Assembly: GCA_964016885.1 (NCBI GenBank)
Contig: OZ024764.1
Location: 3,596,001-3,660,000 of the forward strand
Length of the DNA stretch: 64,000 nucleotides
Reading direction: 5' to 3'
Origin: Eledone cirrhosa
Taxonomy: Eukaryota
The position numbers and the translations under genes are program-made. How positions within the stretch are numbered: position 1 is the first letter of the stretch; each line of letters starts with the position of its first letter. The notes under the pieces are model-generated. The model ran no database searches. It was given only the letters and a program-made list of their open reading frames with translations, and was not told the origin of the DNA. Shown here piece by piece: positions 9,901 through 61,187 of the stretch.

Positions 9901-10309
9901 ACATCCTGTATCAGTTTCTTGGAATTAACAGAACTTTCACTTTAAATAAGACAGCCTCAGTCGACTGACTGTATATATGTATATACACTGATATATACAC
10001 CCTCCTGTGTATATAACTGTCTCTTATATATACACCCTCCTGTTTATATCTTTATCTTATATACACATCCTAACATATATATACAACTATATATATACCT
10101 ATAACTATATAATTGAAATTATATAGTTCACATTGAAGAAGAACTTTGTCGGGTAAGTTTACTAATTTTTACTAATAGGCTAGGTAGCCGGTAAAGCCTA
10201 AAGGGATGCAATACACATCGCTACAGCGTTTCACCAGCTCAACCATTCATACATGTGAGTGTACGTAATAATTATTTTGTATAATCTGCATATTTATGAA
10301 TATGTATGA

Positions 10310-12165: not shown

Positions 12166-12196
12166 GAAACGGCTTGAGCTCTCCCGTCGGGGTCTT

Positions 12197-12232
<36 letters not shown>

Positions 12233-12319
12233 AGAATAGGATTGGCTGTTTAGTTGCTAGTTAAGTTAGGCTTAAAATTGGAATGAGAATAATATATATA
12301 TATACACACACAGACACAC

Positions 12320-12356
<37 letters not shown>

Positions 12357-12704
12357 TAAATGAAAAGTATAGAAATTGTTTTAGCGAGAAGCTAACAGTA
12401 TTCCAATATATATATATATACATATATATATGTGTGTGTGCCTGTGTATGTCCATCAGGTACTAACAGGAGATAACGAAGTATGGGGTGACAAACCTTAG
12501 AAAACAGTGACCAGTGTTACACTTTTAAAATATAACTACCATCGTGTGTATATATATATATGTATATATGTAGGAGGTGAGTTTTATTGTAGTACAATAA
12601 GATTTCTTAATATATATATATATGTGTGGGTGTGTATATGTGTGTGTGTATGTATATATATATATATATATATATGTGTGTTTGTATCGATATATGTGTT
12701 TGTG

Positions 12705-13537
12705 TCATGGGCGATGACACCCTTGGAGAGTCGCTGGACATGGAAGAGGACGAACTGGCCAGCCTATTCGGTAGGACTTTCGGCCCGGGACCAATGGACA
12801 ACTTCCAGAAGTCACTGGCCTGGCAGTGCTACCGGGGGGCTCTACCCGTTCGAGAAAAGCTCTACAGACACGGGCGCCCGGGCAGGGATCCCTCGAAAAA
12901 GATTTGCCCTAGATGCGTGCGTCACGAAGAAACCGTTGCGCACGCATTGGTGCAATGTCCGGACGTGGCTGGTCTGTGGGGCTACGCCGAACAACTGCTG
13001 TCGCGGGTGGCGCCGATTAAATTGACCGCCGAGTCCGTGATGACAATCAAACCGCCTCCCCTCTTCACAAAGGAAGCAAAGGCGGTTTTTCTGTGCATAA
13101 TAGCCATGTTGAAAGAGGTTGTTTGGTGGACACGATTGAAAGGTCTGAGGTCAGGCAACTTCCTCTCTGGCCATAGTCTGGTCTACTTCTTCCGATATCA
13201 CTTCGGAAGAAGGATAAGAATGGAGAGAGAGGTGCTTGGCCACAGGCAGTTTTAAGAAAGGTGGGTGATAGTGGCGAGAATGGCTCGTGTAAATGGGCCT
13301 TCTCTGTATACCATCCTGTAGGTAAAGAAGTGAAGGAGAGGGGAGCACCTCCTCCATGTGCTCCCCGGGCAAAGGATTGCACACTTTTTCGGGGGTGTGT
13401 GCAACCCCCATCACGTCCCCTCCCTTTTGAGGTTGTTTTCGATTATTTTCATTTTATACCCTTTTTACTCGATTTTATGTAAACTCCCCCTTTGTATTTG
13501 TCCCTTCTTTTTGTGCCTTTATGGTAAATAAAGAAAT
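12705..13537 (+). mobile_element. Tx1/L1-clade LINE 3' fragment
   Basis: CPRC..EETVAHALVQCP motif, AAATAAAGAAA end. Confidence 0.85.
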
Positions 13538-13822
13538 ATATCTATGTATTTGTGTCATCATCATCGTTTAACGTATATCTTCCACGCAAACATGGGTTTA
13601 GACGTATATATGTGTTTGTGTGTATATATATGTGTTTATGTGTATATATATGTGTCTGTGTATATAGATATGTGTATGTGGCCACATATATATACACACA
13701 AACACACATATATATAAAGTAGAAACAATTAATTTCTCTATTTTCATTTATATATATATGTCCCAAGGCTCTGAAACCTTCAATACGAAAAACATAGAGG
13801 TGGCATATCTAAGAACTGACTA

Positions 13823-13878
13823 ACTGCCTGATGAGGTCATAGCCATTCAATGGCTATCATCGAAATATATATAGCAGT
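13823..13878 (+). ncRNA. Type I hammerhead ribozyme (Penelope pLTR-type)
   Basis: actgc CTGATGA ggtc-atagcca-ttcaa-tggctat-catc GAAA tatat ATA gcagt: stems I and II plus a self-complementary short stem III. Confidence 0.8.
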
Positions 13879-13919
13879 AAATAAAGGATTATGAGTTCAT
13901 GCAATTGACTTATGTTTCG

Positions 13920-13978
<59 letters not shown>

Positions 13979-14224
13979 ATACTATACAGACACACACACA
14001 CATATATATATATATATATTAAAGAGTTAAACAAGATTCAATGAGTACATCAAAGAATGAGTTTTACAGTAGATTGGAAGCACTCTACAACTTTAAATGT
14101 ACAGTTATGTTTCATAAAACCCTTAAAATGTGCAGTTGTGTTGTATGTATGGACCTGTAACTCCTAATAGAGTGGTAGGGGTGCCACATTGACTTACAGC
14201 ATTTCAAACCTCGCAGAGCCCATC

Positions 14225-17200
14225 CCTCTGTTTATAATATTTACTGTATTATAACACTGTCTGTCTATCCCCACATGTATTACTGTTACACCTGTTTATA
14301 ATATTTACTGTATTATAACACTGTCTGTCCAGCCCCACATGTATTACTGTTACCCCTGTTTATAATATTTACTGTATTATAACACTGTCTGTCTATCCCC
14401 ACATGTATTACTGTTACCCCTGTTTATAATATTTACTGTATTATAACAGTCTGTCTGTCCAGCCCCACATGTATTACTGTTACACCTGTTTATAATATTT
14501 ACTGTATTATAACACTGTCTGTCTATCCCCACATGTATTACTGTTACCCCTGTTTATAATATTTACTGTATTATAACACTGTCTGTCCAGCCCCACATGT
14601 ATTACTGTTACCCCTGTTTATAATATCTACTGTATTATAACACTGTCTGTCCAGCCCCACATGTATTACTGTTACCCCTGTTTATAATATTTACTGTATT
14701 ATAACACTGTCTGTCTATCCCCACATGTATTACTGTTACCCCTGTTTATAATATCTACTGTATTATAACACTGTCTGTCCAGCCCCACATGTATTACTGT
14801 TACACCTGTTTATAATATTTACTGTATTATAACACTGTCTGTCTATCCCCACATGTATTACTGTTACCCCTGTTTATAATATTTACTGTATTATAACAGT
14901 CTGTCTGTCCAGCCCCACATGTATTACTGTTACCCCTGTTTATAATATCTACTGTATTATAACACTGTCTGTCCAGCCCCACATGTATTACTGTTACCCC
15001 TGTTTATAATATTTACTGTATTATAACACTGTCTGTCCAGCCCCACATGTATTACTGTTACCCCTGTTTATAATATTTACTGTATTATAACACTGTCTGT
15101 CCAGCCCCACATGTATTACTGTTATCCCTGTTTATAATATTTACTGTATAATAACACTGTCTGTCCAGCCCCACATGTATTACTGTTACCCCTGTTTATA
15201 ATATTTACTGTATTATAACAGTCTGTCTGTCCAGCCCCACATGTATTACTGTTACCCCTGTTTATAATATTTACTGTATTATAACAGTCTGTCTGTCCAG
15301 CCTCACATGTATTACTGTTACCCCTGTTTATAATATCTACTGTATTATAACACTGTCTGTCCAGCCCCACATGTATTACTGTTACCCCTGTTTATAATAT
15401 TTACTGTATAATAACACTGTCTGTCCAGCCCCACATGTATTACTGTTATCCCTGTTTATAATATTTACTGTATAATAACACTGTCTGTCTAGCCCCACAT
15501 GTATTACTGTTACCCCTGTTTATAATATCTACTGTATTACAACACTGTCTGTCCAGCCCCACATGTATTACTGTTACCCCTGTTTATAATATCTACTGTA
15601 TTATAACACTGTCTGTCCAGCCCCACATGTATTACTGTTACCCCTGTTTATAATATCTACTGTATTACAACACTGTCTGTCCAGCCCCACATGTATTACT
15701 GTTACCCCTGTTTATAATATTTACTGTATAATAACAGTCTGTCTGTCCAGCCCCACATGTATTACTGTTACCCCTGTTTATAATATTTACTGTATTATAA
15801 CACTGTCTGTCCAGCCCCACATGTATTACTGTTACCCCTGTTTATAATATTTACTGTATAATAACACTGTCTGTCCAGCCCCACATGTATTACTATTACC
15901 CCTGTTTATAATATTTACTTTCTTATAACACTGTCTGTCCAGCCCCACATGTATTACTGTTACCCCTGTTTATAATATCTACTGTATTATAACACTGTCT
16001 GTCTATCCCCACATATATTACTGTTACCTCTGTTTATAATATTTACTGTATTATAACAGTCTGTCTGTCCAGCCCCACATGTATTACTGTTACCCCTGTT
16101 TATAATATTTACTGTATTATAACACTGTCTGTCCAGCCCCACATGTATTACTGTTACCCCTGTTTATAATATCTACTGTATTATAACACTGTCTGTCCAG
16201 CCCCACATGTATTACTGTTACCCCTGTTTATAATATTTACTGTATAATAACACTGTCTGTCCAGCCCCACATGTATTACTGTTACCCCTGTTTATAATAT
16301 TTACTGTATAATAACACTGTCTGTCCAGCCCCACATGTATTACTGTTACCCCTGTTTATAATATCTACTGTATTATAACACTGTCTGTCTATCCCCACAT
16401 ATATTACTGTTACCTCTGTTTATAATATCTACTGTATTATAACACTGTCTGTCTATCCCCACATATATTACTGTTACCTCTGTTTATAATATTTACTGTA
16501 TTATAACAGTCTGTCTGTCCAGCCCCACATATATTACTGTTACCCCTGTTTATAATATCTACTGTATTATAACAGTCTGTCTGTCCAGCCCCACATATAT
16601 TACTGTTACCCCTGTTTATAATATCTACTGTATTATAACAGTCTGTCTGTCCAGCCCCACATATATTACTGTTACCCCTGTTTATAATATCTACTGTATT
16701 ATAACAGTCTGTCTGTCCAGCCCCACATGTATTACTGTTACCCCTGTTTATAATATCTACTGTATTATAACAGTCTGTCTGTCCAGCCCCACATATATTA
16801 CTGTTACCCCTGTTTATAATATCTACTGTATTATAACACTGTCTGTCTGTCCAGCCCCACATATATTACTGTTACCCCTGTTTATAATATTTACTGTATT
16901 ATAACACTGTCTGTCCAGCCCCACATATATTACTGTTACCTCTGTTTATAATATCTACTGTATTATAACAGTCTGTCTGTCCAGCCCCACATGTATTACT
17001 GTTACCCCTGTTTATAATATCTACTGTATTATAACAGTCTGTCTGTCCAGCCCCACATGTATTACTGTTACCCCTGTTTATAATATTTACTGTATTATAA
17101 CAGTCTGTCTGTCCAGCCCCACATGTATTACTGTTACCCCTGTTTATAATATCTACTGTATTATAACAGTCTGTCTGTCCAGCCCCACATGTATTACTGT

Positions 17201-17535
17201 TACCCCTGTTTATAATATTTACTGTATTATAACACTGTCTGTCCAGCCCCACATGTATTACTGTTACGCCTGTTTATAATATCTACTGTATTATAACACT
17301 GTCTGTCCAGCCCCACATGTATTACTGTTACCCCTGTTTATAATATCTACTGTATTATAACACTGTCTGTCTATCCCCACATGTATTACTGTTACCCCTG
17401 TTTATAATATCTACTGTATTATAACAGTCTGTCTGTCCAGCCCCACATGTATTACTGTTACGCCTGTTTATAATATTTACTGTATTATAACACTGTCTAT
17501 CCCCACATATATTACTGTTACCTCTGTTTATAATC
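14225..17535. repeat. 64/66-bp minisatellite (probably intronic)
   Basis: cccctgtttataatatttactgtattataacactgtctgtccagccccacatgtattactgtta, about 51 copies. Runs directly into a splice acceptor. Confidence 0.95.
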
Positions 17536-17593
17536 TAAAATCTGCTCTGTTTTTCTCTTCTCCCCAGACATCTTGTCAACAATAACCTGAATT

Positions 17594-18391
17594 ATGCAAA
17601 TTGCCGTCGCCCTCCCTATAATAGCAGCCGGAAACTTGATCGCTGAATATCTACGAAACAGACGTATTGAACAGCGTGAAACTCGAGAGCTTAATGAACA
17701 GCATGAAGGGCGTCAATTTAGGGAGCAGCTTATGCTTCAGTTAGCTGAAGAAGAACGGGAGAAATCGGCACATCGCAGACATCTGGATTATGAAACACAT
17801 CAATTAGCTCTGAATGAAAAGGAGCAGAAACTGAATAAAGAAATGATACCATATCTGGGCATAGCATTGGTGATTGTGGTGATGGCGTTAGCTATAGTGG
17901 TGGTGATGTGTGTATATTGGTTGGTACCGTTAGTCTGTTGGTTGTTACAGTATGTAGTGATGTCTGTCTTTTGTTTGTTACAGTATGTAGTGATGTCTGT
18001 CTGTTGGTTGTTACAGTATGTAGTGATGTCTGTCTTTTGGTTGTTACAGTATGTAGTGATGTCTGTCTGTTGGTTGTTACAGTATGTAGTGATGTCTGTC
18101 TGTTGGTTGTTACAGTGTGTAGTGATGTCTGTCTGTTGGTTGTTACAGTATGTAGTGATGTCTGTCTGTTGGTTGATAAAATATGTAGTGATGTCTGTCT
18201 TTTGGTTGTTACGGTATGTAGTGATGTCTGTATATCAGTTCTTTAACTTTAAAGCTATGGTTTTCATTGCAATTCTGGGATTTGTTATTTATCACATTCA
18301 TGATGATACAAAACCTAAACCTCTTCAACATCCTAATAATGCTAATAATAACAAAAAAAACAAAAAAAACAAAAAAATGACGAAACAATGA
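17594..18391 (+). CDS. Orphan putative membrane protein: charged coiled-coil N-terminus, TM segment, about 9 x 11-aa VVMSVCWLLQY repeats, TM segment, Lys/Asn-rich tail
   Basis: 265-aa ORF after a strong acceptor (ctgtttttctcttctccccAG at 17567), with an in-frame stop just upstream of the ATG. Candidate upstream donor GG|GTAAGT at 10153. Paralog at 43978. Confidence 0.6.
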   Translation: MQIAVALPIIAAGNLIAEYLRNRRIEQRETRELNEQHEGRQFREQLMLQLAEEEREKSAHRRHLDYETHQLALNEKEQKLNKEMIPYLGIALVIVVMALAIVVVMCVYWLVPLVCWLLQYVVMSVFCLLQYVVMSVCWLLQYVVMSVFWLLQYVVMSVCWLLQYVVMSVCWLLQCVVMSVCWLLQYVVMSVCWLIKYVVMSVFWLLRYVVMSVYQFFNFKAMVFIAILGFVIYHIHDDTKPKPLQHPNNANNNKKNKKNKKMTKQ

Positions 18392-18439
18392 GATCTCTTC
18401 ATGGCTGGAGTGTAACTGATTTTGGTACTTACTGTACCT

Positions 18440-18710
18440 ATGATGGTATTGATGGTTGTATCAGAAGCTGTGATGGTATTGATGGTTGTATCAGTAGCTG
18501 TGATGGTATTGATGGTTGTATTGGAAGCTGTGATGGTATTGATGGTTGTATCGGTAGCTGTGGTGGTATTGATGGTTGTATTGGAAGCTGTGATGGTATT
18601 GATGGTTGTATCGGTAGCTGTGGTGGTATTGATGGTTGTATTGGAAGCTGTGATGGTATTGATGGTTGTATTGGAAGCTGTGATGGTATTGATGGTTGTA
18701 TTGGTAGCTG
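18440..18710. repeat. 30-bp minisatellite
   Basis: gtgatggtattgatggttgtattggaagct, about 9 copies (about 3 in copy 2 at 46088-46180). Confidence 0.9.
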
Positions 18711-19394
18711 CTCTGTTTTCCTGTCCCTCCAAGGAAGACATCCAAGCATCAACCACCTTAATTATGATGTGGAGACAAGACGGCAGTGATGAAGACTCTG
18801 ATAGTGCAGCAATAGAGTTTTATAGAAAACTTATTCCTGGCTTCGGAGAAGGGTTAGATGGAGTGTTCAGTGGAATGTCTTTCAACCCACAAGCTCTGGG
18901 ATTTCTTGCTCACCCCATATATAACACAGTAAAAGCTTTATCTCACATAACATTACTCTATAAATACTATTGTATTTTCATGGTAAACACTTTACCTCAC
19001 ATAATATTGAATCTATGAGATTTTGATGATTTGATTGGGCATGGACTGTAATTAAGGTCGAGTGACATAACTTTTAATGATCAGCGGCTTTTAGACTCAC
19101 CTTATTAAAGAAACAATTGTTAATACTGTAAATAAACCCTATTGTACAGCCGCCCATGTTATTCTTCATTCTTTTATTATACAGATATATATATATACCA
19201 AAGGTAGAACTATATATATCTACATAGAACTACATACATCTATACTAATAAAGCGGAGGGCCGTATGTAAGTAACAAACTTTTCACCAAACGGCACCAAA
19301 TTTACACCATAGATATAACTATTTCCAAGTAAGAAAGTGGGAGTATTTTTGTCAACTGAATTTTGTTAAAAGATTAAAGACATTATTTAAATAT

Positions 19395-19807
19395 TCACTT
19401 TGCTAGCACCTTGGCCAAAATCTGTAACTCTGTATTTAGCAGAGTTATGGGCCTGAAGTTACTTATTTCGTACCCGACCTCCCATGGGTACATGCTGAAG
19501 CATATAAACAATATGCCCCCACACCCCCTACCGCAAGGTGGTCGTGGAGGTGCCACGGCAAAAAAGCACCCAGCCCACACTGTAAAGTGGACGTGTAGGC
19601 GCGCCACGAAAAAGCACCCAGCACTCACTGTAAATGAGGTTGGTGTTAGGAAGGGGATCCAGCTGTAGAAATCAAGCCAGATCAGTTCCTGTATGAGCAA
19701 GGCATGGTCAGCCGACCAGACACTGCCCACAACAGGACAACCCGTCTAACCCATGCTAGCGTGGAAGAACGGACGTAAAACGGTGATGATGATGATGATG
19801 ATGATGA
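19395..19807. mobile_element. Chimeric insertion: Tx1 RT fragment (-) joined to an RTE 3' tail (+)
   Basis: SNFRPITLLNTELQILAKVLAK on the minus strand, then RTE 3' UTR ending in (GAT)n. Absent from the paralogous site at about 48757. Confidence 0.75.
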
Positions 19808-20192
19808 CTTCTTTAAAATTTTCAAATGTCAATGCTTTCGGTTATACAACATTCCTCTCTCTTTCTTAGTCTGTCTTTTTAGATAGCTACTAGCAGAATG
19901 GCCTGGCGTACACATACACACGTACACATACACACAACATATATATAAATACATACACACACACACATATATATATACATATAAATACATATATACATAT
20001 ATATATATACATATACACACACATATATATATACATATATATATATACATATATATATACATATATATATATATAAACAAGGTTTAGAAAATAATGAAAA
20101 AGTTTCAAAATAAATTTTTAAAAATTGACTTTACCTACTATAGTTACCTTTACCGATCGGTTTCGAATCCCCAAAAAAAGGAACACATATCC

Positions 20193-20263
<71 letters not shown>

Positions 20264-20300
20264 AAAACGAAATAAAAAATCAAGTCATTAGAGATATACT

Positions 20301-20440
20301 TCACTGCTTTACGATCGTTTCTAGGTGGTGATAATACATTGTATCTATACTCAGTTATTGATCTATGTAAGTTTACAAACTATCAGATAGAGAGAATATT
20401 TACTTACATGCATATCACCAGCTGTTTTCAAAAGCAATAA
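20301..20440 (-). ncRNA. Type I hammerhead ribozyme, U3-A8 core variant, long stem II
   Basis: ttattgctt TTGAAAA cagctggtgata...tatcaccaccta GAAA cgatc GTA aagcagtga: 9-bp stem I, palindromic stem III. Confidence 0.65.
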
Positions 20441-21014
20441 TAATTTTATTCAATAATAATTTTACTCAGAATTAGTAGCATGTTAGTATCATGTCCTTAT
20501 TTGGAGGTGGTTGAAGAGCTAACAAATCAAATTGTTTTTTTCATATGGGGTTAAGATGAAAAGTAATACACCTAAGTTCAATTCATGACCCTTTGAAAGG
20601 AATGGTTGAAGGTGTTAGTAGAGTTGGCATAAGAATCTATTAGGAAGGAAGGGGTTTGCCAAACTGATAGTTGAATGTATCTGGTATAGTGAATTTAAAA
20701 GGAATGTCAAAATAAATGGTGATTAGTGTTGTATTGAGTTTTAAGGTGAATATAAATTAATGTTATGGCTAGGAAAGATAGTATATTAAAAGGTGGTCAA
20801 TGTATTATCACCATCTAGAAACGATCGTAAAGCAGTGAAGTATATCTCTAATGACTTGATTTTTTATTTCATTGTTTTAACTTATATCATGACTCTGTTT
20901 TCCTTTTAATGTTTTATTGTTATCTTAACCTACAACATTTTCAACATATGGATTACATCGAGTTCTTCATGCAAAATAGACCCCACAACTTACAGTGGAT
21001 ACCTCTGTATATAT

Positions 21015-21190
21015 CATCATTTTCATCATTTCATTTTACGTCCGCTTTTTCCCTGCTTGCAAGGGTGGGACGGGAACTGATTCTGGCTTGATTTCTACAG
21101 CTGGATGCCCTTCCTAACACCAACCTCATTTACAGTGAGTGCTGGGTGCTTTTTTGCCGTGGCACCTGCACGACCACTTTGCAGTGGAAT
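21015..21190 (-). mobile_element. RTE 3' tail fragment
   Basis: Same gatttctacagctggatgcccttcctaacacc sequence as 1840-1900. Confidence 0.7.
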
Positions 21191-21211
21191 GATATGAACC
21201 CCAGTCCCTAT

Positions 21212-21358
21212 CATCTCATTTCTACAGCTGAGTAAACTGGAGCAATGTGAAATAAAGTGTCTTGCTCAAGGAAACAACACATCACCCGGTCTGAGAATTG
21301 AACTCACAACCTTTCGATTGCAAGGCCAATGCTCTAACCACTAAGCCATGTGCCTCCA
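21212..21358 (-). mobile_element. tRNA-derived SINE
   Basis: Minus strand has A box TGGCTTAGTGG, B box GTTCAATTC and central TCCTTGAGCAAGACACTTTA domain. Confidence 0.8.
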
Positions 21359-21371
21359 TTATATATATATA

Positions 21372-21720
21372 TTAGAAAGTGAGGTTTTTTTTACAAAATA
21401 ACCGAGGTGTCCTACACGAGTGAAAGTATAAGGAAAAAAGATGAAAATCGAAAATGCAACTGGAGTCTTTTTTTTTTAAATATATATATTTATTTGGTTC
21501 CTTTACCGGTTTCGCAGTTCTTCTGATTTTCAAAAGTAGAGTTGAGATGGAGGGTCTGTGGCTTTTCACAGATGTGAGAAAAGCCACAGACCCTCCATCT
21601 CAACTCTACTTTTGAAAAGCAGAAGAACTGCGAAACTGGTAAAGGAACCAAATAAATATATATATCTTTTTAAAAAAAGACTCCAGTTGCATTTTCGATT
21701 TTCATCTTTTTTCCTTATAT
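21372..21720. mobile_element. Palindromic (divergent inverted) pLTR-like insertion with one HHR per arm
   Basis: Arms of about 140 bp around a spacer at 21568-21577. Both outer ends abut (TA)n. Confidence 0.75.
21608..21645 (+). ncRNA. Minimal type I hammerhead ribozyme, U3-A8 variant (mirror copy at about 21500-21537, minus strand)
   Basis: ctt TTGAAAA gcag-aagaa-ctgc GAAA c(t/c)g GTA aag. The minus-strand copy has palindromic stem III ACCGGT. Confidence 0.65.
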
Positions 21721-21734
21721 ATATATATATATGT

Positions 21735-22115
21735 CCTTACCATCTCAGTCTTCTCTCCTGCACACCACAACTTATCCCTCTTGACATTACACATCCAACG
21801 GAGCATGCTTGCTTCATTTCTCTCCAGCCGTCGCATGTCCTCTGCAGTTGCTGACCATGTCTCACTACCATGCAGCAAGTGCATCTCACCAGGCTTTCAT
21901 CATATAACCGGCCTTTTGTTCAGAGGAAGAAACCCTTCGTTGTCAACAGGGGAAGCAGCTCCCTAAACATGGGCGGAGGTGGTGAGAGCAGACCTCAGAT
22001 TGCTGAAACTCACGGAGGAGATGATGAAGGACCGTGACGGGTGGAGAGATGCTGTGCTGAATAGGACCCGTCCAACCCTTGTAAGCAGGGAAAAGCAGAC
22101 ATAAAATGATGATGA
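21735..22115. mobile_element. RTE fragments in inverted arrangement
   Basis: LHGSETW..RRLERNEASMLRWMC on minus, then an RTE 3' end with (GAT)n on plus. Confidence 0.7.
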
Positions 22116-22198
22116 TATATATAGATACATATATATATATATATATATAGATACATATATATATATATACACACACATACACATACACTTACATCCAC

Positions 22199-22243
<45 letters not shown>

Positions 22244-22583
22244 AACATACATACATATATATATATACACACACATACATATACATATATACACATACAT
22301 ATACATGTGTGCATACGCATACATATATATATATATATACACACACACATATACATACATACACAAATACATACACATATACACACACATGGATATACAC
22401 ACACTAGGATACTAGCTCCTTCTATTGCCCAGATGGGAAAAGCAGACATAAAATGATGATGATATATATAGATACATATATATATATATATATAGATACA
22501 TATATATATATATACACACACATACATACATACACACATACACATACACTTACATCCAGATATAAATATATATATATATATAT

Positions 22584-24771
22584 ATTGGAATAAATGCTCT
22601 GAAATAGCGATATATATGTGAATATAGACATAGAATATTCGAAAATATTCTGTATGTTTATAATAAACATTTTGAAGACCTAATCGCTATAGAATAGAAT
22701 ACGTCACGTATTACAATTAGATTCTCGATAAAAGCAAGGGAAGTAATCTACGCGTTTCATTCTCGTTAGAAATCATCAGGACTACATATCCAGTGCTTTT
22801 ATCGAGAATGACACAGCTAGAGACTTATAGAATACTTAGCTGTGTACAGGAACTGGTTTGAAAGAGCGGTTGCCGGTCCGGCAGAAATTAGAAATTGGAA
22901 TAAATGCTCTGAAATAGCGATATATATGTGAATATAGACATAGAATATTCGAAAATATTCTGTATGTTTATAATAAACATTTTGAAGACCTAATCGCTAT
23001 AGAATAGAATACGTCACGTATTACAATTAGATTCTCGATAAAAGCAAGGGAAGTAATCTACGCGTTTCATTCTCGTTAGAAATCATCAGGACTACATATC
23101 CAGTGCTTTTATCGAGAATGACACAGCTAGAGACTTATAGAATACTTAGCTGTGTACAGGAACTGGTTTGAAAGAGCGGTTGCCGGTCCGGCAGAAATTA
23201 GAAATTGGAATAAATGCTCTGAAATAGCGATATATATGTGAATATAGACATAGAATATTCGAAAATATTCTGTATGTTTATAATAAACATTTTGAAGACC
23301 TAATCGCTATAGAATAGAATACGTCACGTATTACAATTAGATTCTCGATAAAAGCAAGGGAAGTAATCTACGCGTTTCATTCTCGTTAGAAATCATCAGG
23401 ACTACATATCCAGTGCTTTTATCGAGAATGACACAGCTAGAGACTTATAGAATACTTAGCTGTGTACAGGAACTGGTTTGAAAGAGCGGTTGCCGGTCCG
23501 GCAGAAATTAGAAATTGGAATAAATGCTCTGAAATAGCGATATATATGTGAATATAGACATAGAATATTCGAAAATATTCTGTATGTTTATAATAAACAT
23601 TTTGAAGACCTAATCGCTATAGAATAGAATACGTCACGTATTACAATTAGATTCTCGATAAAAGCAAGGGAAGTAATCTACGCGTTTCATTCTCGTTAGA
23701 AATCATCAGGACTACATATCCAGTGCTTTTATCGAGAATGACACAGCTAGAGACTTATAGAATACTTAGCTGTGTACAGGAACTGGTTTGAAAGAGCGGT
23801 TGCCGGTCCGGCAGAAATTAGAAATTGGAATAAATGCTCTGAAATAGCGATATATATGTGAATATAGACATAGAATATTCGAAAATATTCTGTATGTTTA
23901 TAATAAACATTTTGAAGACCTAATCGCTATAGAATAGAATACGTCACGTATTACAATTAGATTCTCGATAAAAGCAAGGGAAGTAATCTACGCGTTTCAT
24001 TCTCGTTAGAAATCATCAGGACTACATATCCAGTGCTTTTATCGAGAATGACACAGCTAGAGACTTATAGAATACTTAGCTGTGTACAGGAACTGGTTTG
24101 AAAGAGCGGTTGCCGGTCCGGCAGAAATTAGAAATTGGAATAAATGCTCTGAAATAGCGATATATATGTGAATATAGACATAGAATATTCGAAAATATTC
24201 TGTATGTTTATAATAAACATTTTGAAGACCTAATCGCTATAGAATAGAATACGTCACGTATTACAATTAGATTCTCGATAAAAGCAAGGGAAGTAATCTA
24301 CGCGTTTCATTCTCGTTAGAAATCATCAGGACTACATATCCAGTGCTTTTATCGAGAATGACACAGCTAGAGACTTATAGAATACTTAGCTGTGTACAGG
24401 AACTGGTTTGAAAGAGCGGTTGCCGGTCCGGCAGAAATTAGAAATTGGAATAAATGCTCTGAAATAGCGATATATATGTGAATATAGACATAGAATATTC
24501 GAAAATATTCTGTATGTTTATAATAAACATTTTGAAGACCTAATCGCTATAGAATAGAATACGTCACGTATTACAATTAGATTCTCGATAAAAGCAAGGG
24601 AAGTAATCTACGCGTTTCATTCTCGTTAGAAATCATCAGGACTACATATCCAGTGCTTTTATCGAGAATGACACAGCTAGAGACTTATAGAATACTTAGC
24701 TGTGTACAGGAACTGGTTTGAAAGAGCGGTTGCCGGTCCGGCAGAAATTAGAAATTGGAATAAATGCTCTG
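22584..24771 (-). mobile_element. Retrozyme-like 310-bp tandem array, left arm (7 units, HHR on minus strand)
   Basis: taaatgctct recurs at 22591, 22901 ... 24761 (period 310). No unit differences seen by eye. Confidence 0.9.
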
Positions 24772-27700
24772 TACACAGCTAAGTATTCTATAAGTCTCTA
24801 GCTGTGTCATTCTCGATAAAAGCACTGGATATGTAGTCCTGATGATTTCTAACGAGAATGAAACGCGTAGATTACTTCCCTTGCTTTTATCGAGAATCTA
24901 ATTGTAATACGTGACGTATTCTATTCTATAGCGATTAGGTCTTCAAAATGTTTATTATAAACATACAGAATATTTTCGAATATTCTATGTCTATATTCAC
25001 ATATATATCGCTATTTCAGAGCATTTATTCCAATTTCTAATTTCTGCCGGACCGGCAACCGCTCTTTCAAACCAGTTCCTGTACACAGCTAAGTATTCTA
25101 TAAGTCTCTAGCTGTGTCATTCTCGATAAAAGCACTGGATATGTAGTCCTGATGATTTCTAACGAGAATGAAACGCGTAGATTACTTCCCTTGCTTTTAT
25201 CGAGAATCTAATTGTAATACGTGACGTATTCTATTCTATAGCGATTAGGTCTTCAAAATGTTTATTATAAACATACAGAATATTTTCGAATATTCTATGT
25301 CTATATTCACATATATATCGCTATTTCAGAGCATTTATTCCAATTTCTAATTTCTGCCGGACCGGCAACCGCTCTTTCAAACCAGTTCCTGTACACAGCT
25401 AAGTATTCTATAAGTCTCTAGCTGTGTCATTCTCGATAAAAGCACTGGATATGTAGTCCTGATGATTTCTAACGAGAATGAAACGCGTAGATTACTTCCC
25501 TTGCTTTTATCGAGAATCTAATTGTAATACGTGACGTATTCTATTCTATAGCGATTAGGTCTTCAAAATGTTTATTATAAACATACAGAATATTTTCGAA
25601 TATTCTATGTCTATATTCACATATATATCGCTATTTCAGAGCATTTATTCCAATTTCTAATTTCTGCCGGACCGGCAACCGCTCTTTCAAACCAGTTCCT
25701 GTACACAGCTAAGTATTCTATAAGTCTCTAGCTGTGTCATTCTCGATAAAAGCACTGGATATGTAGTCCTGATGATTTCTAACGAGAATGAAACGCGTAG
25801 ATTACTTCCCTTGCTTTTATCGAGAATCTAATTGTAATACGTGACGTATTCTATTCTATAGCGATTAGGTCTTCAAAATGTTTATTATAAACATACAGAA
25901 TATTTTCGAATATTCTATGTCTATATTCACATATATATCGCTATTTCAGAGCATTTATTCCAATTTCTAATTTCTGCCGGACCGGCAACCGCTCTTTCAA
26001 ACCAGTTCCTGTACACAGCTAAGTATTCTATAAGTCTCTAGCTGTGTCATTCTCGATAAAAGCACTGGATATGTAGTCCTGATGATTTCTAACGAGAATG
26101 AAACGCGTAGATTACTTCCCTTGCTTTTATCGAGAATCTAATTGTAATACGTGACGTATTCTATTCTATAGCGATTAGGTCTTCAAAATGTTTATTATAA
26201 ACATACAGAATATTTTCGAATATTCTATGTCTATATTCACATATATATCGCTATTTCAGAGCATTTATTCCAATTTCTAATTTCTGCCGGACCGGCAACC
26301 GCTCTTTCAAACCAGTTCCTGTACACAGCTAAGTATTCTATAAGTCTCTAGCTGTGTCATTCTCGATAAAAGCACTGGATATGTAGTCCTGATGATTTCT
26401 AACGAGAATGAAACGCGTAGATTACTTCCCTTGCTTTTATCGAGAATCTAATTGTAATACGTGACGTATTCTATTCTATAGCGATTAGGTCTTCAAAATG
26501 TTTATTATAAACATACAGAATATTTTCGAATATTCTATGTCTATATTCACATATATATCGCTATTTCAGAGCATTTATTCCAATTTCTAATTTCTGCCGG
26601 ACCGGCAACCGCTCTTTCAAACCAGTTCCTGTACACAGCTAAGTATTCTATAAGTCTCTAGCTGTGTCATTCTCGATAAAAGCACTGGATATGTAGTCCT
26701 GATGATTTCTAACGAGAATGAAACGCGTAGATTACTTCCCTTGCTTTTATCGAGAATCTAATTGTAATACGTGACGTATTCTATTCTATAGCGATTAGGT
26801 CTTCAAAATGTTTATTATAAACATACAGAATATTTTCGAATATTCTATGTCTATATTCACATATATATCGCTATTTCAGAGCATTTATTCCAATTTCTAA
26901 TTTCTGCCGGACCGGCAACCGCTCTTTCAAACCAGTTCCTGTACACAGCTAAGTATTCTATAAGTCTCTAGCTGTGTCATTCTCGATAAAAGCACTGGAT
27001 ATGTAGTCCTGATGATTTCTAACGAGAATGAAACGCGTAGATTACTTCCCTTGCTTTTATCGAGAATCTAATTGTAATACGTGACGTATTCTATTCTATA
27101 GCGATTAGGTCTTCAAAATGTTTATTATAAACATACAGAATATTTTCGAATATTCTATGTCTATATTCACATATATATCGCTATTTCAGAGCATTTATTC
27201 CAATTTCTAATTTCTGCCGGACCGGCAACCGCTCTTTCAAACCAGTTCCTGTACACAGCTAAGTATTCTATAAGTCTCTAGCTGTGTCATTCTCGATAAA
27301 AGCACTGGATATGTAGTCCTGATGATTTCTAACGAGAATGAAACGCGTAGATTACTTCCCTTGCTTTTATCGAGAATCTAATTGTAATACGTGACGTATT
27401 CTATTCTATAGCGATTAGGTCTTCAAAATGTTTATTATAAACATACAGAATATTTTCGAATATTCTATGTCTATATTCACATATATATCGCTATTTCAGA
27501 GCATTTATTCCAATTTCTAATTTCTGCCGGACCGGCAACCGCTCTTTCAAACCAGTTCCTGTACACAGCTAAGTATTCTATAAGTCTCTAGCTGTGTCAT
27601 TCTCGATAAAAGCACTGGATATGTAGTCCTGATGATTTCTAACGAGAATGAAACGCGTAGATTACTTCCCTTGCTTTTATCGAGAATCTAATTGTAATAC

Positions 27701-27786
27701 GTGACGTATTCTATTCTATAGCGATTAGGTCTTCAAAATGTTTATTATAAACATACAGAATATTTTCGAATATTCTATGTCTATAT
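24769..27786 (+). mobile_element. Retrozyme-like 310-bp tandem array, right arm (about 9.7 units, 10 HHRs on plus strand)
   Basis: gtacacagct recurs at 24771, 25081 ... 27561. Reverse complement of the left-arm unit. Confidence 0.9.
24809..24897 (+). ncRNA. Type I hammerhead ribozyme (representative; repeats every 310 bp, 17 copies in total)
   Basis: gtagtc CTGATGA t-ttct-aacg-agaa-t GAAA cgc GTA gattac. Palindromic stem III ACGCGT. Stem I is extended by a perfect 16-bp helix attctcgataaaagca/tgcttttatcgagaat. Predicted cut after 24869. Confidence 0.85.
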
Positions 27787-27986
27787 ATATATATATATAT
27801 ATATACACACAAACATACATACATATATATATATACACACACATACATATACATATATACACATACATATACATGTGTGTGCATACGCATACATATATAT
27901 ATATATACATACATACACAAATACATACACATATACACACACATGGATATACACACACTAGGATACTAGCTCCTTCTATTGCCCAG

Positions 27987-28415
27987 ATGGTTCTATAGAA
28001 ATAGTAGACACTTTCCATTACCTGGGTGATAAAATCAGCAGTGGAGGAGGGTGCTCTGAAAGTACTGTAACCAGAGTCAGAACGGGTTGGAAAAAGTTGA
28101 GAGAGCTTATACCACTATTAGCTGCTAAAGAGTTCTCTCTAAAAATGAAAGGCAGACTGCATGATGCCTGTATACGAACAGCAATGTTACATGGCAGTGA
28201 GACTTGGGCTTTGTGTGTTGAGGACCTGCGCAGACTGGAAAGGAATGAAGCTTGCATGCTCCGTTGGATGTGTAATAGTAATATACGTGAACAGCAAAGC
28301 ATAAATGAACTAAGTGAGAAATTAGGAATAAGAGGGATCAGATGCTGTTTACTCGAGAGAAGACTACGTTGGTATGGTCACGTGATGTGCATAAAAGACG
28401 ACAGCTGTATAAAAA
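27987..28415 (+). mobile_element. RTE LINE RT C-terminal fragment
   Basis: FHYLG, MLHGSETW, RRLRWYGHV motifs. Confidence 0.85.
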
Positions 28416-28429
28416 ATATACATATAAAT

Positions 28430-29000
28430 ACCTATATACAAGGATATCTTACTTGGCGCCTATGACAGTAAAGAAGAACAGATAGAGACATTAGAGAAGT
28501 AGAAGAACACTGGGAGTTCCTAAAAAATAACTTACTAAAGGTGATGGATAAGATTTGTGGTTGGAGCAAGACCACAGGGAGGAGGAGAGTGACTTGGTAG
28601 TGGAACAATAAGGTAGATGAGGCAGTTAAAGCTAAGAGACGGGCATGGAAAGAATGGAGGAATGGAGAAAGCAGGGTACAGTAGATAGAGACCAGGAGGG
28701 AAGCTAGGCGACAAGTGTACTTAGCTAGAAAGGAAGCAGAGGATAAAAAATTCAAGCATGTTTTGCAGCGTGAGGACCAGAAACAGGAGGTGTGAAGGAT
28801 TGCGAGGCAGTGTGACAGAGAGAACTGTGATGTCATTGGAGAGAAGTGTGTCTGGAAGATAAAGGTGAGCTTGCCCTCACAAGTGCTGAGAAGAAAGCTG
28901 TGTGGAAGAGCCATTATGAAAGATTATGAAATGAAGAGAATGCATGGGAGAAAGAGACTCTACCCCAAGTGGACCCTATAGGGGGACCAGCCATACAAGT
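28430..29000 (+). mobile_element. Degenerate RTE LINE endonuclease-RT linker fragment
   Basis: Plus frame reads EEHWEFLKNNLLKVMDKICGW..TW*WNNKVDEAVKAKRRAWKEW. Confidence 0.7.
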
Positions 29001-29004
29001 CAGC

Positions 29005-29430
29005 TCAGCGCCTATGGTGGTGAGTAAGGAGGTAGCTCTGGGGCTGAGGACACCAGAAGTCTCCACTGCCAGGTGTACGACCGCAAACCTGTCGAAGAGC
29101 GACCGATATTTGAAGAGTTTGGCCCCCCTCAGCTCGACGTGCAGAACCTGGGTCAGTCGCAGACTGCACCAGGTTGCGGCTGCAGAAAGTGTCAGTGCAA
29201 GTGGCATCCCAGACGAGGGGTTTGCCACAGCAGAACGGCAAGATGGTCATGCCATCTGGCCTTTTGCTGTCCCCTCGATCCAGCCCCACCAGCTCAAGCT
29301 GGGAAGGGAAGCCTGCAGCGTCCAAGCCACGCTTACTGACCTCGTTGAGGGCAGCATGGCGTGGGATGCAGCCGGCACTGTGGCATCTGTAGAAACACAT
29401 GAGAGCAACAAGAGACCGAACACGTCCACT
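29005..29430 (-). mobile_element. CRE-like non-LTR retrotransposon fragment, restriction-like endonuclease (REL) domain
   Basis: RHAALN..KRPDGMT..GKPLVWDATCTDT, then frameshifted KLFKY..AVETSG (PD-(D/E)xK type). Confidence 0.75.
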
Positions 29431-29574
29431 TGTATGAAAACACAGACACACTCTAGCCTCTCATACTTATTTCTACTGCTACTATAATGGCACCTGCTCC
29501 TCACAACTGGTTGACATCAGGTCATAGTCACTGAGGCATGACTGACACCACATCACAACACATCCCACCAGAAC

Positions 29575-30540
29575 ACTGCACCACCACCTCACAACTACCA
29601 CTACCCACCACCACACGACTACCACCACCACCACACAACTACCACCACTACCTCCACACCACCACCATGACTACCACCACCACCAAACGACTACCCCCAC
29701 TACCACCACACCACCACCATCACCACACAACTACCACCACACCACCACCACCACCACACAACTATCACCACTACCACCACACCACCACCACCACACGACT
29801 ACCACCACTACCACACCACCATCACCACACGACTACCACGACTACCACCACACCACCACCACCATACCACCACCAACACACGACTATCACCACCACCACA
29901 ACATGACTACCACCACCACACGACTACCACCATCACACAACTACCCCCACCACACGACTACCACCACACCACCACACAACTACCACTACACAAACACCAC
30001 CACACAACTACCACCACCACCACTACACGACTATCACCACCACACAACTACCCCCACCACACAACTATCACCAGCACCACACGACAACCACCACGACCAC
30101 CACACCACCCCCACCACACGACTACCACCACACCACTACCACCACAACACCACAACACCACCACCACAACACCACCACTTCAACACCACTACAACAACCA
30201 CAACACCACCACCACCACAATACAAACACCACCACCACAACACCACCACCACCATAACAACACCAACACCACCACCACCATAACACCAACACCACCACCA
30301 CCATAACACCACCACCAACACCACCACACCACCACAACACCACTATCAACACCACCACACCACCACAACCACACGACTACCACACCAACAGACTACCACC
30401 ACCACCACCACCACCACAACCAACAGGCCACCACCACCACAACACCACCACAACACCACCAACACCACCACACCACCACACCACCAACACCACCACCAAC
30501 ACACTACCACCACCACCACCACACCACCACCACCACTACA
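29575..30540. repeat. (CAC/CAA)n low-complexity tract
   Basis: Degenerate ACC repeats. Confidence 0.9.
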
Positions 30541-30947
30541 TCCTGTTTCAGTTTCTTGGAATTAACAGAACTTTCACTTTAAATAAGACAGCCTCAGTCG
30601 ACTGACTGTATATATGTATATACACTGATATATACACCCTCCTGTGTATATAACTGTCTCTTATATATACACCCTCCTGTGTATATCTTTATCTTATATA
30701 CACATCCTAGCATATATATACAACTATACATATACGTATAACTATATAATTGAAATTATATAGTTCACATTGAAGAAGAACTTCGTCGGGTAAGTTTACT
30801 AATTTTTACTAATAGGCTAGGTAGCCGGTAAAGCCTAAAGGGATGCAATACACATCGCTACAGCGTTTCACCAGCTCAACCATTCATACATGTGAGTGTA
30901 CGTAATAATTATTTTGTATAATCTGCATATTAATGAATATGTATGAG

Positions 30948-33288
30948 TAGATGTGTGTATATATTTACCTGTAGATGTGTGTATATGTAGCTTTACAGGT
31001 CACTTGTCTATATCTGTCTATATATCTACCTGTAGATGTGTGTATATGTAGGTTTACAGGTCTCTTGTCTATATCTGTCTATATATCTACCTGTAGATGT
31101 GTGTATATGTAGGTTTACACCTGTCTTGTCTCTATCTGTCTATATATCTACCTGTAGATGTGTGTATATGTAGGTTTACACCTCTCTTCTCTCTATCTGT
31201 CTATATATCTACCTGTAGATGTGTGTATATGTAGGTTTACACCTCTCTTGTCTCTATCTGTCTATATATCTACCTGTAGATGTGTGTATATGTAGGTTTA
31301 CACCACTCTTCTCTCTATCTGTCTATATATTTACCTGTAGATGTGTGTATATGTAGGTTTACACCTCTCTTGTCTCTATCTGTCTATATATCTACCTGTA
31401 GATGTGTGTATATGTAGGTTTACACCTCTCTTCTCTCTATCTGTCTATATATTTACCTGTAGATGTGTGTATATGTAGGTTTACACCTGTCTTGTCTCTA
31501 TCTGTCTATATATCTACCTGTAGATGTGTGTATATGTAGGTTTACACCTCTCTTGTCTCTATCTGTCTATATATCTACCTGTAGATGTGTGTATATGTAG
31601 GTTTACACCTCTCTTGTCTCTATCTGTCTATATATCTACCTGTAGATGTATGTATATGTAGGTTTACACCTCTCTTGTCTCTATCTGTCTATATATCTAC
31701 CTGTAGATGTATGTATATGTAGGTTTACACCTCTCTTGTCTCTATCTGTCTATATATTTACCTGTAGATGTGTGTATATGTAGGTTTACACCTGTCTTGT
31801 CTCTGTCTATATATCTACCTGTAGATGTGTGTATATGTAGGTTTACACCTCTCTTGTCTCTATCTGTCTATATATTTACCTGTAGATGTGTGTATATGTA
31901 GGTTTACACCTCTCTTGTCTCTATCTGTCTATATATCTACCTGTAGATGTGTGTATATGTAGGTTTACACCTGTCTTGTCTCTATCTGTCTATATATTTA
32001 CCTGTAGATGTGTGTATATGTAGGTTTACACCTCTCTTGTCTCTATCTGTCTATATATCTACCTGTAGATGTGTGTATATGTAGGTTTACACCTGTCTTG
32101 TCTCTATCTGTCTATATATCTACCTGTAGATGTGTGTATATGTAGGTTTACACATGTCTTGTCTCTATCTGTCTATATATCTACCTGTAGATGTGTGTAT
32201 ATGTAGGTTTACACATGTCTTGTCTCTATCTGTCTATATATCTACCTGTAGATGTGTGTATATGTAGGTTTACACATGTCTTGTCTCTATCTGTCTATAT
32301 ATCTACCTGTAGATGTGTGTATATGTAGGTTTACACCTGTCTTGTCTCTATCTGTCTATATATCTACCTGTAGATGTGTGTATATGTAGGTTTACACATG
32401 TCTTGTCTCTATCTGTCTATATATCTACCTGTAGATGTGTGTATATGTAGGTTTACACCTCTCTTGTCTCTATCTGTCTATATATCTACCTGTAGATGTG
32501 TGTATATGTAGGTTTACACCTGTCTTGTCTCTATCTGTCTATATATCTACCTGTAGATGTGTGTATATGTAGGTTTACACATGTCTTGTCTCTATCTGTC
32601 TATATATCTACCTGTAGATGTGTGTATATGTAGGTTTACACCTGTCTTGTCTCTATCTGTCTATATATCTACCTGTAGATGTGTGTATATGTAGGTTTAC
32701 ACATGTCTTGTCTCTATCTGTCTATATATCTACCTGTAGATGTGTGTATATGTAGGTTTACACCTGTCTTGTCTCTATCTGTCTATATATCTACCTGTAG
32801 ATGTGTGTATATGTAGGTTTACACCTCTCTTGTCTCTATCTGTCTATATATCAACCTGTAGATGTGTATATATGTAGGTTTACACCTCTCTTGTCTCTAT
32901 CTGTCTATATATCTACCTGTAGATGTGTGTATATGTAGGTTTACACCTCTCTTCTCTCTATCTGTCTATATATTTACCTGTAGATGTGTGTATATGTAGG
33001 TTTACACCTCTCTTCTCTCTATCTGTCTATATATTTACCTGTAGATGTGTGTATATGTAGGTTTACACCTCTCTTCTCTCTATCTGTCTATATATTTACC
33101 TGTAGATGTGTGTATATGTAGGTTTACACCTGTCTTGTCTCTATCTGTCTATATATCTACCTGTAGATGTGTGTATATGTAGGTTTACACCTCTCTTGTC
33201 TCTACCTGTCTATATATTTACCTGTAGATGTGTGTATATGTAGGTTACACCTCTCTTGTCTCTATCTGTCTATATATTTACCTGTAGA
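30948..33288. repeat. 61-bp minisatellite (copy 2)
   Basis: About 38 units. Confidence 0.95.
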
Positions 33289-43977: not shown

Positions 43978-46040
43978 ATGCAAATTGCCGTCGCCCTCCC
44001 AATAATAGCAGCCGGAAACTTGATCGCTGAACATCTACGAAACGAACGTATTCGACATCATGAAGATCAAGAGTTTAATGAACAGCGTGAAAGGCGTCAA
44101 TTTAGGGAGCAGCTTATGCTTCAGTTAGTTGAAGAAGAACGGGAGAAATCGGCACATCGCAGACATCTGGATTATGAAACACATCAATTAGCTCTGAATG
44201 AAAAGGAGCAGAAACTGAATAAAGAAATGATACCATATCTGGGCATAGCATTGGTGATTGTGGTGATGGCGTTAGCTATAGTGGTGGTGATGTGTGTATA
44301 TTGGTTGGTACCGTTAGTCTTTTGGTTGTTACAGTGTGTAGTGATGTCTGTCTGTTGGTTGTTACAGTGTGTAGTGATGTCTGTCTTTTGTTTGTTACAG
44401 TATGTAGTGATGTCTGTCTGTTGGTTGTTACAGTATGTAGTGATGTCTGTCTTTTGTTTGTTACAGTATGTAGTGATGTCTGTCTGTTGGTTGTTACAGT
44501 GTGTAGTGATGTCTGTCTGTTGGTTGTTACAGTATGTAGTGATGTCTGTCTGTTGGTTGTTACAGTGTGTAGTGATGTCTGTCTTTTGTTTGTTACAGTA
44601 TGTAGTGATGTCTGTCTGTTGGTTGTTACAGTGTGTAGTGATGTCTGTCTGTTGGTTGTTACAGTATGTAGTGATGTCTGTCTGTTGGTTGTTACAGTGT
44701 GTAGTGATGTCTGTCTTTTGGTTGTTACAGTATGTAGTGATGTCTGTCTGTTGGTTGATACAGTATGTAGTGATGTCTGTCTGTTGGTTGTTACAGTATG
44801 TAGTGATGTCTGTCTGTTGGTTGTTACAGTGTGTAGTGATGTCTGTCTTTTGGTTGTTACAGTATGTAGTGATGTCTGTCTGTTGGTTGATACAGTATGT
44901 AGTGATGTCTGTCTGTTGGTTGTTACAGTATGTAGTGATGTCTGTCTGTTGGTTGTTACAGTGTGTAGTGATGTCTGTCTGTTGGTTGATACAGTATGTA
45001 GTGATGTCTGTCTGTTGGTTGTTACAGTATGTAGTGATGTCTGTCTGTTGGTTGTTACAGTGTGTAGTGATGTCTGTCTTTTGGTTGTTACAGTATGTAG
45101 TGATGTCTGTCTGTTGGTTGATACAGTATGTAGTGATGTCTGTCTGTTGGTTGTTACAGTATGTAGTGATGTCTGTCTGTTGGTTGTTACAGTGTGTAGT
45201 GATGTCTGTCTTTTGGTTGTTACAGTATGTAGTGATGTCTGTCTTTTGGTTGTTACAGTATGTAGTGATGTCTGTCTGTTGGTTGTTACAGTATGTAGTG
45301 ATGTCTGTCTGTTGGTTGTTACAGTATGTAGTGATGTCTGTCTGTTGGTTGTTACAGTGTGTAGTGATGTCTGTCTGTTGGTTGTTACAGTGTGTAGTGA
45401 TGTCTGTCTGTTGGTTGTTACAGTGTGTAGTGATGTGTCTGTTGGTTGTTACAGTATGTAGTGATGTCTGTCTGTTGGTTGTTACAGTGTGTAGTGATGT
45501 CTGTCTGTTGGTTGTTACAGTATGTAGTGATGTCTGTCTGTTGGTTGTTACAGTGTGTAGTGATGTCTGTCTGTTGGTTGTTACAGTGTGTAGTGATGTC
45601 TGTCTGTTGGTTGTTACAGTGTGTAGTGATGTGTCTGTTGGTTGTTACAGTATGTAGTGATGTCTGTCTGTTGGTTGTTACAGTGTGTAGTGATGTCTGT
45701 CTCTTGGTTGTTACAGTGTGTAGTGATGTCTGTCTGTTGGTTGTTACAGTGTGTAGTGATGTCTGTCTCTTGGTTGTTACAGTGTGTAGTGATGTTTGTC
45801 TGTTGGTTGTTATAGTGTGTAGTGATGTCTGTCTGTTGGTTGTTACAGTGTGTAGTGATGTCTGTCTGTTGGTTGTTACAGTGTGTAGTGATGTCTGTAT
45901 ATCAGTTCTTTAACTTTAAAGCTATGTTTGTCATTGCAATTCTGGGATTTGTTATTTATCACATTCATGATGATACAAAACCTAAACCTCTTCAACATCC
46001 TAATAATGCTATTAATAACAACAAAATGACGAAACAATGA
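43978..46040 (+). pseudogene. Paralog of the 17594 ORF with about 48 x 33-bp repeats and two 2-bp frameshifts
   Basis: Same N- and C-termini. 'gatgtgtct' deletions near 45435 and 45630 shift the frame. Acceptor at 43951. Confidence 0.6.
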
Positions 46041-48070: not shown

Positions 48071-48079
48071 ATATATATA

Positions 48080-48310
48080 TCATCATCATTTTACGTCCGC
48101 TTTTCCCTGCTTGCCATGGTGGGATGGGTCCAATTCATTTGTCACGGTCCTTTGTCATCTCCTCTGTGAGCTTCAGCGATCTGAGGTCAGCTCGCATCAC
48201 CTCAGCCCATGATATTTGTGGTCTCCCTCTACTATGATTTCTTAGCACTGCCTTACCCAGCGGTCATCCTCTATGCGCATCACATGTCGATATCAACGCA
48301 CACTACAGTT
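48080..48310 (-). mobile_element. RTE 3' fragment
   Basis: (CAT)n tail and RTE C-terminus-like sequence on the minus strand. Confidence 0.65.
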
Positions 48311-61093: not shown

Positions 61094-61119
61094 ATATACA
61101 TATATACATATATATACAC

Positions 61120-61187
<68 letters not shown>

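Follow-up and report, generated by a model that had tools for sequence, protein, structure and literature searches.

A clustered set of replacement differences, probably selected, between tandem copies of an orphan gene in Eledone cirrhosa

Two tandem copies of an open reading frame (ORF A and ORF B) in Eledone cirrhosa differ at 13 positions within a 61-bp coding tract, and all 13 differences are non-synonymous. The observed clustering is real, and it was probably selected. The explanation that we favor, and to which we give about an even chance, is that selection diversified one helical binding patch on the helix of a predicted membrane-anchored protein, and that two old versions of this patch now stand in tandem. 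The DNA analyzed (the window) is a 64,000-nucleotide stretch of contig OZ024764.1 (GCA_964016885.1, positions 3,596,001 to 3,660,000, forward strand), and coordinates refer to this 64-kb window unless prefixed with G000:C25 or an L-number.

Results

Divergent tract between copies A and B

ORF A and ORF B were compared without gaps from their start codons (ATG at 17594 and 43978).

17594..18391, plus strand: ORF A, 265 amino acids, defined by its open frame and hydropathy layout
43978..45657, plus strand: ORF B, 559 amino acids, with a 33-bp array of 48 units
17648..17708, plus strand: divergent tract of copy A, codons 19-39, with 13 differences from B, 13/13 non-synonymous
44032..44092, plus strand: divergent tract of copy B, defined by the A/B comparison

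Within codons 1-52, 11 codons (19, 23, 26, 27, 28, 30, 31, 33, 37, 39, and 51; 14 nucleotides) differed non-synonymously and 1 codon (codon 8) differed synonymously, exactly the count given in the first-pass annotation. That annotation had extended the divergence over 17615-17750; the clustering was borne out, but the core of the tract was narrower, at 17648-17708. Differences by segment were 1/53 for 17515-17567, 0/26 for 17568-17593, 1/54 for 17594-17647, 13/61 for the tract, and 1/224 for 17709-17932. The tract is a local peak, with 13 differences in 61 bp compared to 3 in 357 bp for its adjoining flanks (17515-17932) and 9 in 5484 bp for intron plus spacer. Thirteen of 15 differences fell within 61 of 339 nucleotides, a concentration equalled in 0 of 200,000 permutations. 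Charge was altered by 7 of the 10 amino acid changes in the tract, with a net charge shift of one, and one charge pair was reversed (R23/E26 in A, E23/R26 in B).

All 13 B-type letters were carried on one contig in 4 of 4 runs, with a contig lacking them beside it. These runs represent at most 2 samples from 1 study, possibly the source of the assembly itself and possibly one animal, and have little bearing on populations. Since both versions of the tract were present in contigs of all 4 runs, and in both samples, the tract is not a base-calling error. There was no third version among the contigs listed; contigs drop rare variants. Single-letter contig differences were seen at 17600, 17617, and 17745, a kind of variant that contig building also drops.

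Paralog C and the orphan family

G000:C25:3682916-3683464 (L003:1547-2095), 23 kb past the window: paralog C, a 182-amino-acid ORF, found by genome DNA search

A search of the genome DNA with the A exon returned A, B, and two acceptor-only matches, one of which opens the ORF of C. C sits behind the same 64-bp minisatellite as A and has 33% amino acid identity to residues 7-111 of A (E 4e-12 in 264 kb searched; 0 of 1000 shuffles as good). Over 103 aligned codons, A and C had a pS of 0.63 and a pN of 0.44, a ratio of 0.70 (bootstrap 0.52-0.94), with an alignment that was protein-guided, which lowers pN. Nucleotide identity in the coding region was 52% with the frame kept, and 61 of 5000 random 42% changes, the scale of the A/C divergence, stayed free of stops. 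The pN/pS ratio of about 0.70 and the kept frame make the frame look coding. In their 5' blocks A and C differed at 8 of 417 bases, compared to 48% of coding bases; the A/B contrast thus recurs deeper in the family, which speaks in favor of selection. Within the tract, C was 52% identical to A and to B, and its silent sites were saturated (pS 0.70-0.73).

C contains a glycine-rich segment with two interleaved i+4 glycine series (G39-43-47-51-55 and G48-52-56-60-64), a charged E/R-rich helix, and a single hydrophobic run at residues 152-182 of 182, with none at the N-terminus, which fits a tail-anchor layout. A weak structure model of C (mean pLDDT 59.8, pTM 0.21) placed long helices at 66-155 and 157-181. 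A and B do not have the glycine-rich part, and their hydrophobic end is lengthened by a 33-bp coding minisatellite; with these long hydrophobic repeat extensions they do not strictly fit the tail-anchor layout.

No relatives were found outside this locus. An alignment-based protein search gave 2672 candidates, none at E<=0.01 (lengths 61-319), and a search with C alone gave 1147 candidates, none at E<=0.1 (lengths 100-319). A profile search against 1.84 billion representatives returned nothing at E<=0.001, none of 4 proteins reached a curated Pfam cut-off, with no known recognition domain found, and an Atlas search had no usable match (best 0.76), nor did an exact look-up. Sampling of relatives seems sparse, since even the closest matches of a neighboring gene were only 47-52% identical. 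By titles and the beginnings of abstracts, none of the cephalopod orphan-gene papers listed was evidently on this family, which may already be in print. By these sequence searches, A, B, and C are a small orphan family with no homologs found elsewhere.

Other elements lie nearby. About 24 kb before the window, L021:1863-6398 on the minus strand (G000:C25:3567863-3572398) holds three long Ser/Lys/Arg-rich ORFs; the longest has its best relative in P0001 (52% identical), a protein with two ion-channel pore domains, which suggests a two-pore potassium channel whose N-terminus is very long. A 580-codon open frame on the minus strand at 59378-61120, with no Pfam match at E<=0.001, resembles a Penelope-type retroelement. 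L008:3596-6360, in the predicted intron of C, contains LTR-retrotransposon-like gag and pol frames (zinc knuckle, protease, reverse transcriptase).

Predicted gene and proteins

10124..10158, plus strand: candidate non-coding exon 1 of A, putatively ending at 10152 and followed by GTAAGT
17541..17593, plus strand: polypyrimidine tract, AG acceptor (17566-17567), and predicted 5' UTR, with little difference among A, B, and C
30761..30795, plus strand: candidate exon 1 and donor of B, within a 417-bp block that matches C at 7/9 variable sites
17933..18231, plus strand: in-frame coding minisatellite of A, 9 units of 33 bp

The exon carrying ORF A is predicted to start at 17568, with a 26-nucleotide leader before the ATG. 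The candidate exon 1 of A lies behind a TATA-like sequence, its start being approximate; the GGTAAG at its end is the only one in 9900-17567, and the unique part of this exon has three copies in the genome. The acceptor and the candidate upstream exon are common to all three copies, and splicing of exon 1 to the ORF exon is inferred from these signals. The first-pass annotation had taken the divergence itself as a sign that the ORF is a real gene. We agree on the gene but not on that basis; support comes from the frame of paralog C and from the shared acceptor and upstream exon. A different reading frame was considered as the real gene and rejected, as no ORF of at least 100 codons covers the tract in another frame and the homology to C is in the ATG frame.

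Contigs of run X1 (88 million letters, kind unknown) gave no cover of 17370-17517 and a mean depth of 3.81 in 17518-17591 compared to 11.3 at 17600. This would fit a start of cover near 17567, the predicted acceptor; being from one run, it was not counted as evidence. A short dispersed repeat at 10163-10320 directly follows the candidate donor. In the genome search with it, 40 of 40 scored candidates were matches, with many clustered on contig C27 at 19.4-20.1 Mb; within the repeat, a second possible donor lies at about 10256.

ORF A has a short apolar start, a helix rich in E, R, Q, and H (about residues 18-83), a hydrophobic segment from about residue 85, nine 11-residue hydrophobic repeats, then a last hydrophobic segment and a basic tail. 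With regard to a signal peptide, N-terminal hydropathy peaked at 1.52, below the threshold used (1.6), and the homologous stretch is internal in C. The product of A and B is predicted from this layout to be a membrane-anchored protein. In B there are about 36 in-frame hydrophobic repeats, and two units of its 33-bp array are 31 bp long (45427 and 45623), so that the frame shifts and the last hydrophobic segment and tail of A are not encoded. Copy B, with its frameshift and long hydrophobic repeats, may have lost function.

Structure of the duplication

12168..14227, no strand assigned: predicted intron, unique part with a retroelement fragment (zf-RVT match), 3 substitutions in 1995 aligned positions compared to B
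14228..17534, no strand assigned: 64-bp minisatellite, with runs of 9 and 6 identical units shared with B up to 16548
18705..19018, plus strand: D segment, with a degenerate second acceptor, a 5' UTR motif, and an 84-codon ORF (18764-19018)
19020..19909, no strand assigned: block Y, downstream, with 18 substitutions over about 480 aligned positions compared to 48366-48858; an older, repeat-derived stratum
19910..30957, no strand assigned: spacer X and 5' block of B, unique parts 99.8% identical to DNA upstream of C
47470..48080, plus strand: D3, with a 64-bp array remnant, an A-like acceptor, and a D-type ORF with an internal stop

Divergence across the duplication showed low flanks, the 13/61 peak, and otherwise a patchwork ranging from 0.15% to 3.8%, in which the older strata (2.6-3.8%) adjoin the exon. 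The co-duplicated retroelement fragment differed at 3 of 928 positions between A and B; the near-identity in the first-pass annotation was upheld, although its count (about 2 differences in 830 bp) was not. The 3' part of the exon differed at 5 of 191 positions between A and B, the two D segments at 1 of 321, and D3 and the D segment of B at 17 of 472. The 64-bp arrays diverge at 16549, after which 8 of the last 14 units of A are absent from the array of B. The older strata and this switch could also reflect old allelic haplotypes or repeat turnover. Because the exon adjoins older strata, the retroelement fragment fails as a clock for the exon, as which it had been proposed, and the contrast between the two overstates the speed of change. 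The clock from block Y is rough as well, since Y is high-copy repeat DNA. Substitution clusters also occurred outside the ORF, with 6 substitutions in 19833-19848 (16 bases, in Y) and 7 in 46205-46235 (31 bases, at the start of D3).

DNA upstream of B and DNA upstream of C differed at 3 of 1855 and 3 of 1634 positions. In the 417-bp 5' block B sides with C, and from the intron on it matches A. B is therefore a C-type 5' end on an A-type body, which is the product expected if A and C crossed over unequally within their near-identical 5' ends. As such a crossover joins two chromosomes, the copies need not have started identical.

The last 30 codons of the D ORF come from a high-copy repeat. D was considered as a protein homolog of the C N-terminus and rejected, as 135 of 1000 shuffles scored as high and only the acceptor and 5' end align, as DNA. 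At 18441-18710 lies a 30-bp minisatellite with 9 units in A and about 3 in B; translated in the open frame 18416-19018, which overlaps D, it gives a second hydrophobic repeat. At 18924-19030 begins a repeat of extreme abundance, whose contig depth sums to over 1 million in X2-X4 and which also forms 72-bp arrays at 919-1531 and in flanking loci. In the spacer, a 310-bp unit forms two head-to-head, mutually inverted arrays (22584-27786; 7.1 and 9.7 copies, 100% identity), bordered by a duplication a few hundred bases long. The other spacer copy, 99.8% identical elsewhere, lacks these arrays, which are either a foldback-like insertion of very young age or an artefact of assembly.

Selection tests on the tract

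The tract was delimited post hoc; within it, differences were present at 13 of 50 replacement sites compared to 0 of 13 silent sites (Fisher P = 0.034). Under six mutation models with transition and CpG bias, the probability of no synonymous change among 13 was 0.011-0.062. For codons 1-52 or 2-113, the probability of at most one synonymous change among 15 was 0.04-0.12 (Fisher P = 0.12). The all-replacement pattern is borderline. Measured against the oldest nearby clock (3.6-3.75%), at least 13 of 50 replacement changes had P of about 2-3e-8, and 0 of 13 silent changes fit the clock. From an old neutral donor as divergent as the tract, some 3 silent changes would be expected.

Adjacent doublets accounted for 3 of the 10 changed tract codons, and the other seven were single changes, all non-synonymous. 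If the doublets are counted as single multinucleotide events, 7 single changes are left and P rises to 0.08-0.23; adjacent pairs were not above chance (P = 0.50). Three tract changes were CpG-type transitions in Arg codons. With C as the outgroup, the ten polarisable changes split 5:5 between the A and B lineages, as repeated separate changes in both would give. A burst in one lineage would give such a split with P = 0.08-0.25, and with C only 52% identical the split is weak evidence against it.

A 4-3 helical stripe (positions 19, 23, 26, 30, 33, and 37) was changed at 6 of 6 positions (P = 0.022), and helical-moment tests gave P = 0.018-0.10. No stop and no proline arose among the tract changes; a random 13-nucleotide change brings a stop about half the time and, when it does not, a proline about 40% of the time. 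All these hints agree in direction, but they share one set of 13 letters and do not count as independent, and only two sequences carry the signal. Taken together, these data leave diversifying selection, as the first-pass annotation had proposed, as the best reading, though a borderline one statistically: P was 0.01-0.06 within the tract and 0.04-0.12 over codons 1-113.

Discussion

In the reading that we favor, selection would have diversified the 21-residue charged stretch of the A/B protein, almost the only part in which the two copies differ, as a binding surface, with the two versions offering different charge patterns at nearly the same net charge. The helix would point into the cytosol and contact a variable partner protein there; the cytosolic position is suggested by the single C-terminal hydrophobic segment of C. 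Unequal crossover between the 5' ends of A and C would have brought into tandem two versions of the coding exon that had diverged beforehand, these versions being old alleles, or old paralogs partly homogenized since. If the copies already differed at the crossover, as we infer, the near-identical intron and spacer date the last exchange and not the tract.

The tract could instead be a neutral residue, an unconverted or imported patch of an older paralog since lost or unassembled, with silent changes missing by small-number chance. The patchwork of the duplication is what such a history would leave (3/1995 in the intron, 5/191 in the 3' exon, 1/321 in D, 18/~480 in Y, and 17/472 for D compared to D3), as are the divergence of the 64-bp arrays at 16549 and the existence of decayed family members (D, D3), and the P value for the whole domain is only 0.04-0.12. 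Conversion from a third paralog had also been offered by the first-pass annotation. However, searches of the assembly with the A exon and the B tract as DNA, and two protein searches, returned only A, B, C, and D3 and no donor; C is silent-saturated in the tract and no nearer to one version than to the other; the remaining A-like strata lie under 4%, five times below the tract; and no silent change among 13 sites has P = 0.01-0.06. We consider a neutral residue unlikely. We hold a mutational burst under relaxed constraint, through doublets, CpG decay in Arg codons, and slippage, possibly in a decaying B, to be doubtful in the same measure. B is frameshifted, and the tract has three doublets; multinucleotide mutations give false signals of positive selection (bioRxiv 10.1101/165969, as outlined there). 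The tract resembles those false signals in that 3 of 10 changed codons have two adjacent base differences, but its seven single changes are likewise non-synonymous without exception, and adjacent pairs are no commoner than chance would give. The tract is also periodic, a 27-nucleotide offset being the best self-match in all four comparisons, and a 14-nucleotide word at codons 25-30 of A recurs at codons 34-39 of B, so that one templated event could yield 5 of the 13 differences. A match of 14 or longer arose in 172 of 2731 random reassignments (6%), though, and of the five word-linked sites C matches A at 3, B at 1, and neither copy at the last, so the form in A looks ancestral rather than newly templated. 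An inverted template switch was rejected, with no template of at least 8 nucleotides nearby and a lone 9-mer about 600 bp away. Copying back of A-to-I edited RNA was also rejected: 5 of 6 polarisable A/G differences run from A to G, but the tract is about 40% A, and the neighbors of the tract sites do not fit the neighbor preferences of ADAR.

False duplication, in which A and B would be alleles of one locus joined by the assembler and the tract would be a pair of highly divergent alleles, is to our minds improbable. A haplotype switch at the shared 5' block would give the same layout, with B carrying the upstream flank of C; intron and spacer differ by 0.16%, an allele-like level; and read depth cannot settle copy number. 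On the other side, the window contains no N, both versions of the tract are in both samples (which may be one animal), and the block that A and C share at their 5' ends spans only about 1.2 kb, shorter than long reads.

Several known systems resemble parts of the diversified-patch reading. Tail-anchored helical membrane proteins include the SNAREs, and tetherin/BST2 is dual-anchored; like these, the A/B/C proteins have a long charged helix followed by a C-terminal hydrophobic segment, a likeness of layout with no sequence relative. The analogy to surface recognition proteins drawn in the first-pass annotation is weak, as no known domain was found and the variable helix is more likely cytosolic, judging by the layout of C. 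Exon 5 of the primate red and green opsins is described as a divergence peak held by selection under gene conversion (PMC3924837). Like the opsin duplicates as outlined in that source, A and B stand in tandem, about 25 kb from each other, with near-identical introns and a narrow coding peak. In contrast to the opsins, the A/B peak is free of silent changes, and a recent unequal crossover accounts for the long near-identical blocks better than short conversions do. The opsin differences are given as fixed (PMC3924837), whereas those of A and B are known from one assembly and at most 2 samples. The ace-1D duplication of Anopheles is presented as a permanent heterozygote that probably arose by unequal crossing-over in a heterozygote (PMC4592963). 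A and B, likewise two divergent copies in close tandem, may by analogy be a duplication of this type, although B took its 5' block from a third paralog, unlike ace-1D as it is described there. More speculatively, and with little confidence, A and B could be two old balanced alleles of a lineage-specific membrane-anchored protein of defence or gamete compatibility that differ along one side of the charged helix, locked together on a single chromosome through unequal crossover as a fixed heterozygote at a recognition locus, and the double glycine zipper of C could make C an effector that forms pores or oligomers.

The evolutionary signature is already well known; what is new is the orphan family that carries it. 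If selection is confirmed, the tract would be the working surface of a family without detectable relatives, A and B would be a ready natural variant pair for binding tests, and the locus would also be a candidate for tandem capture of divergent alleles.
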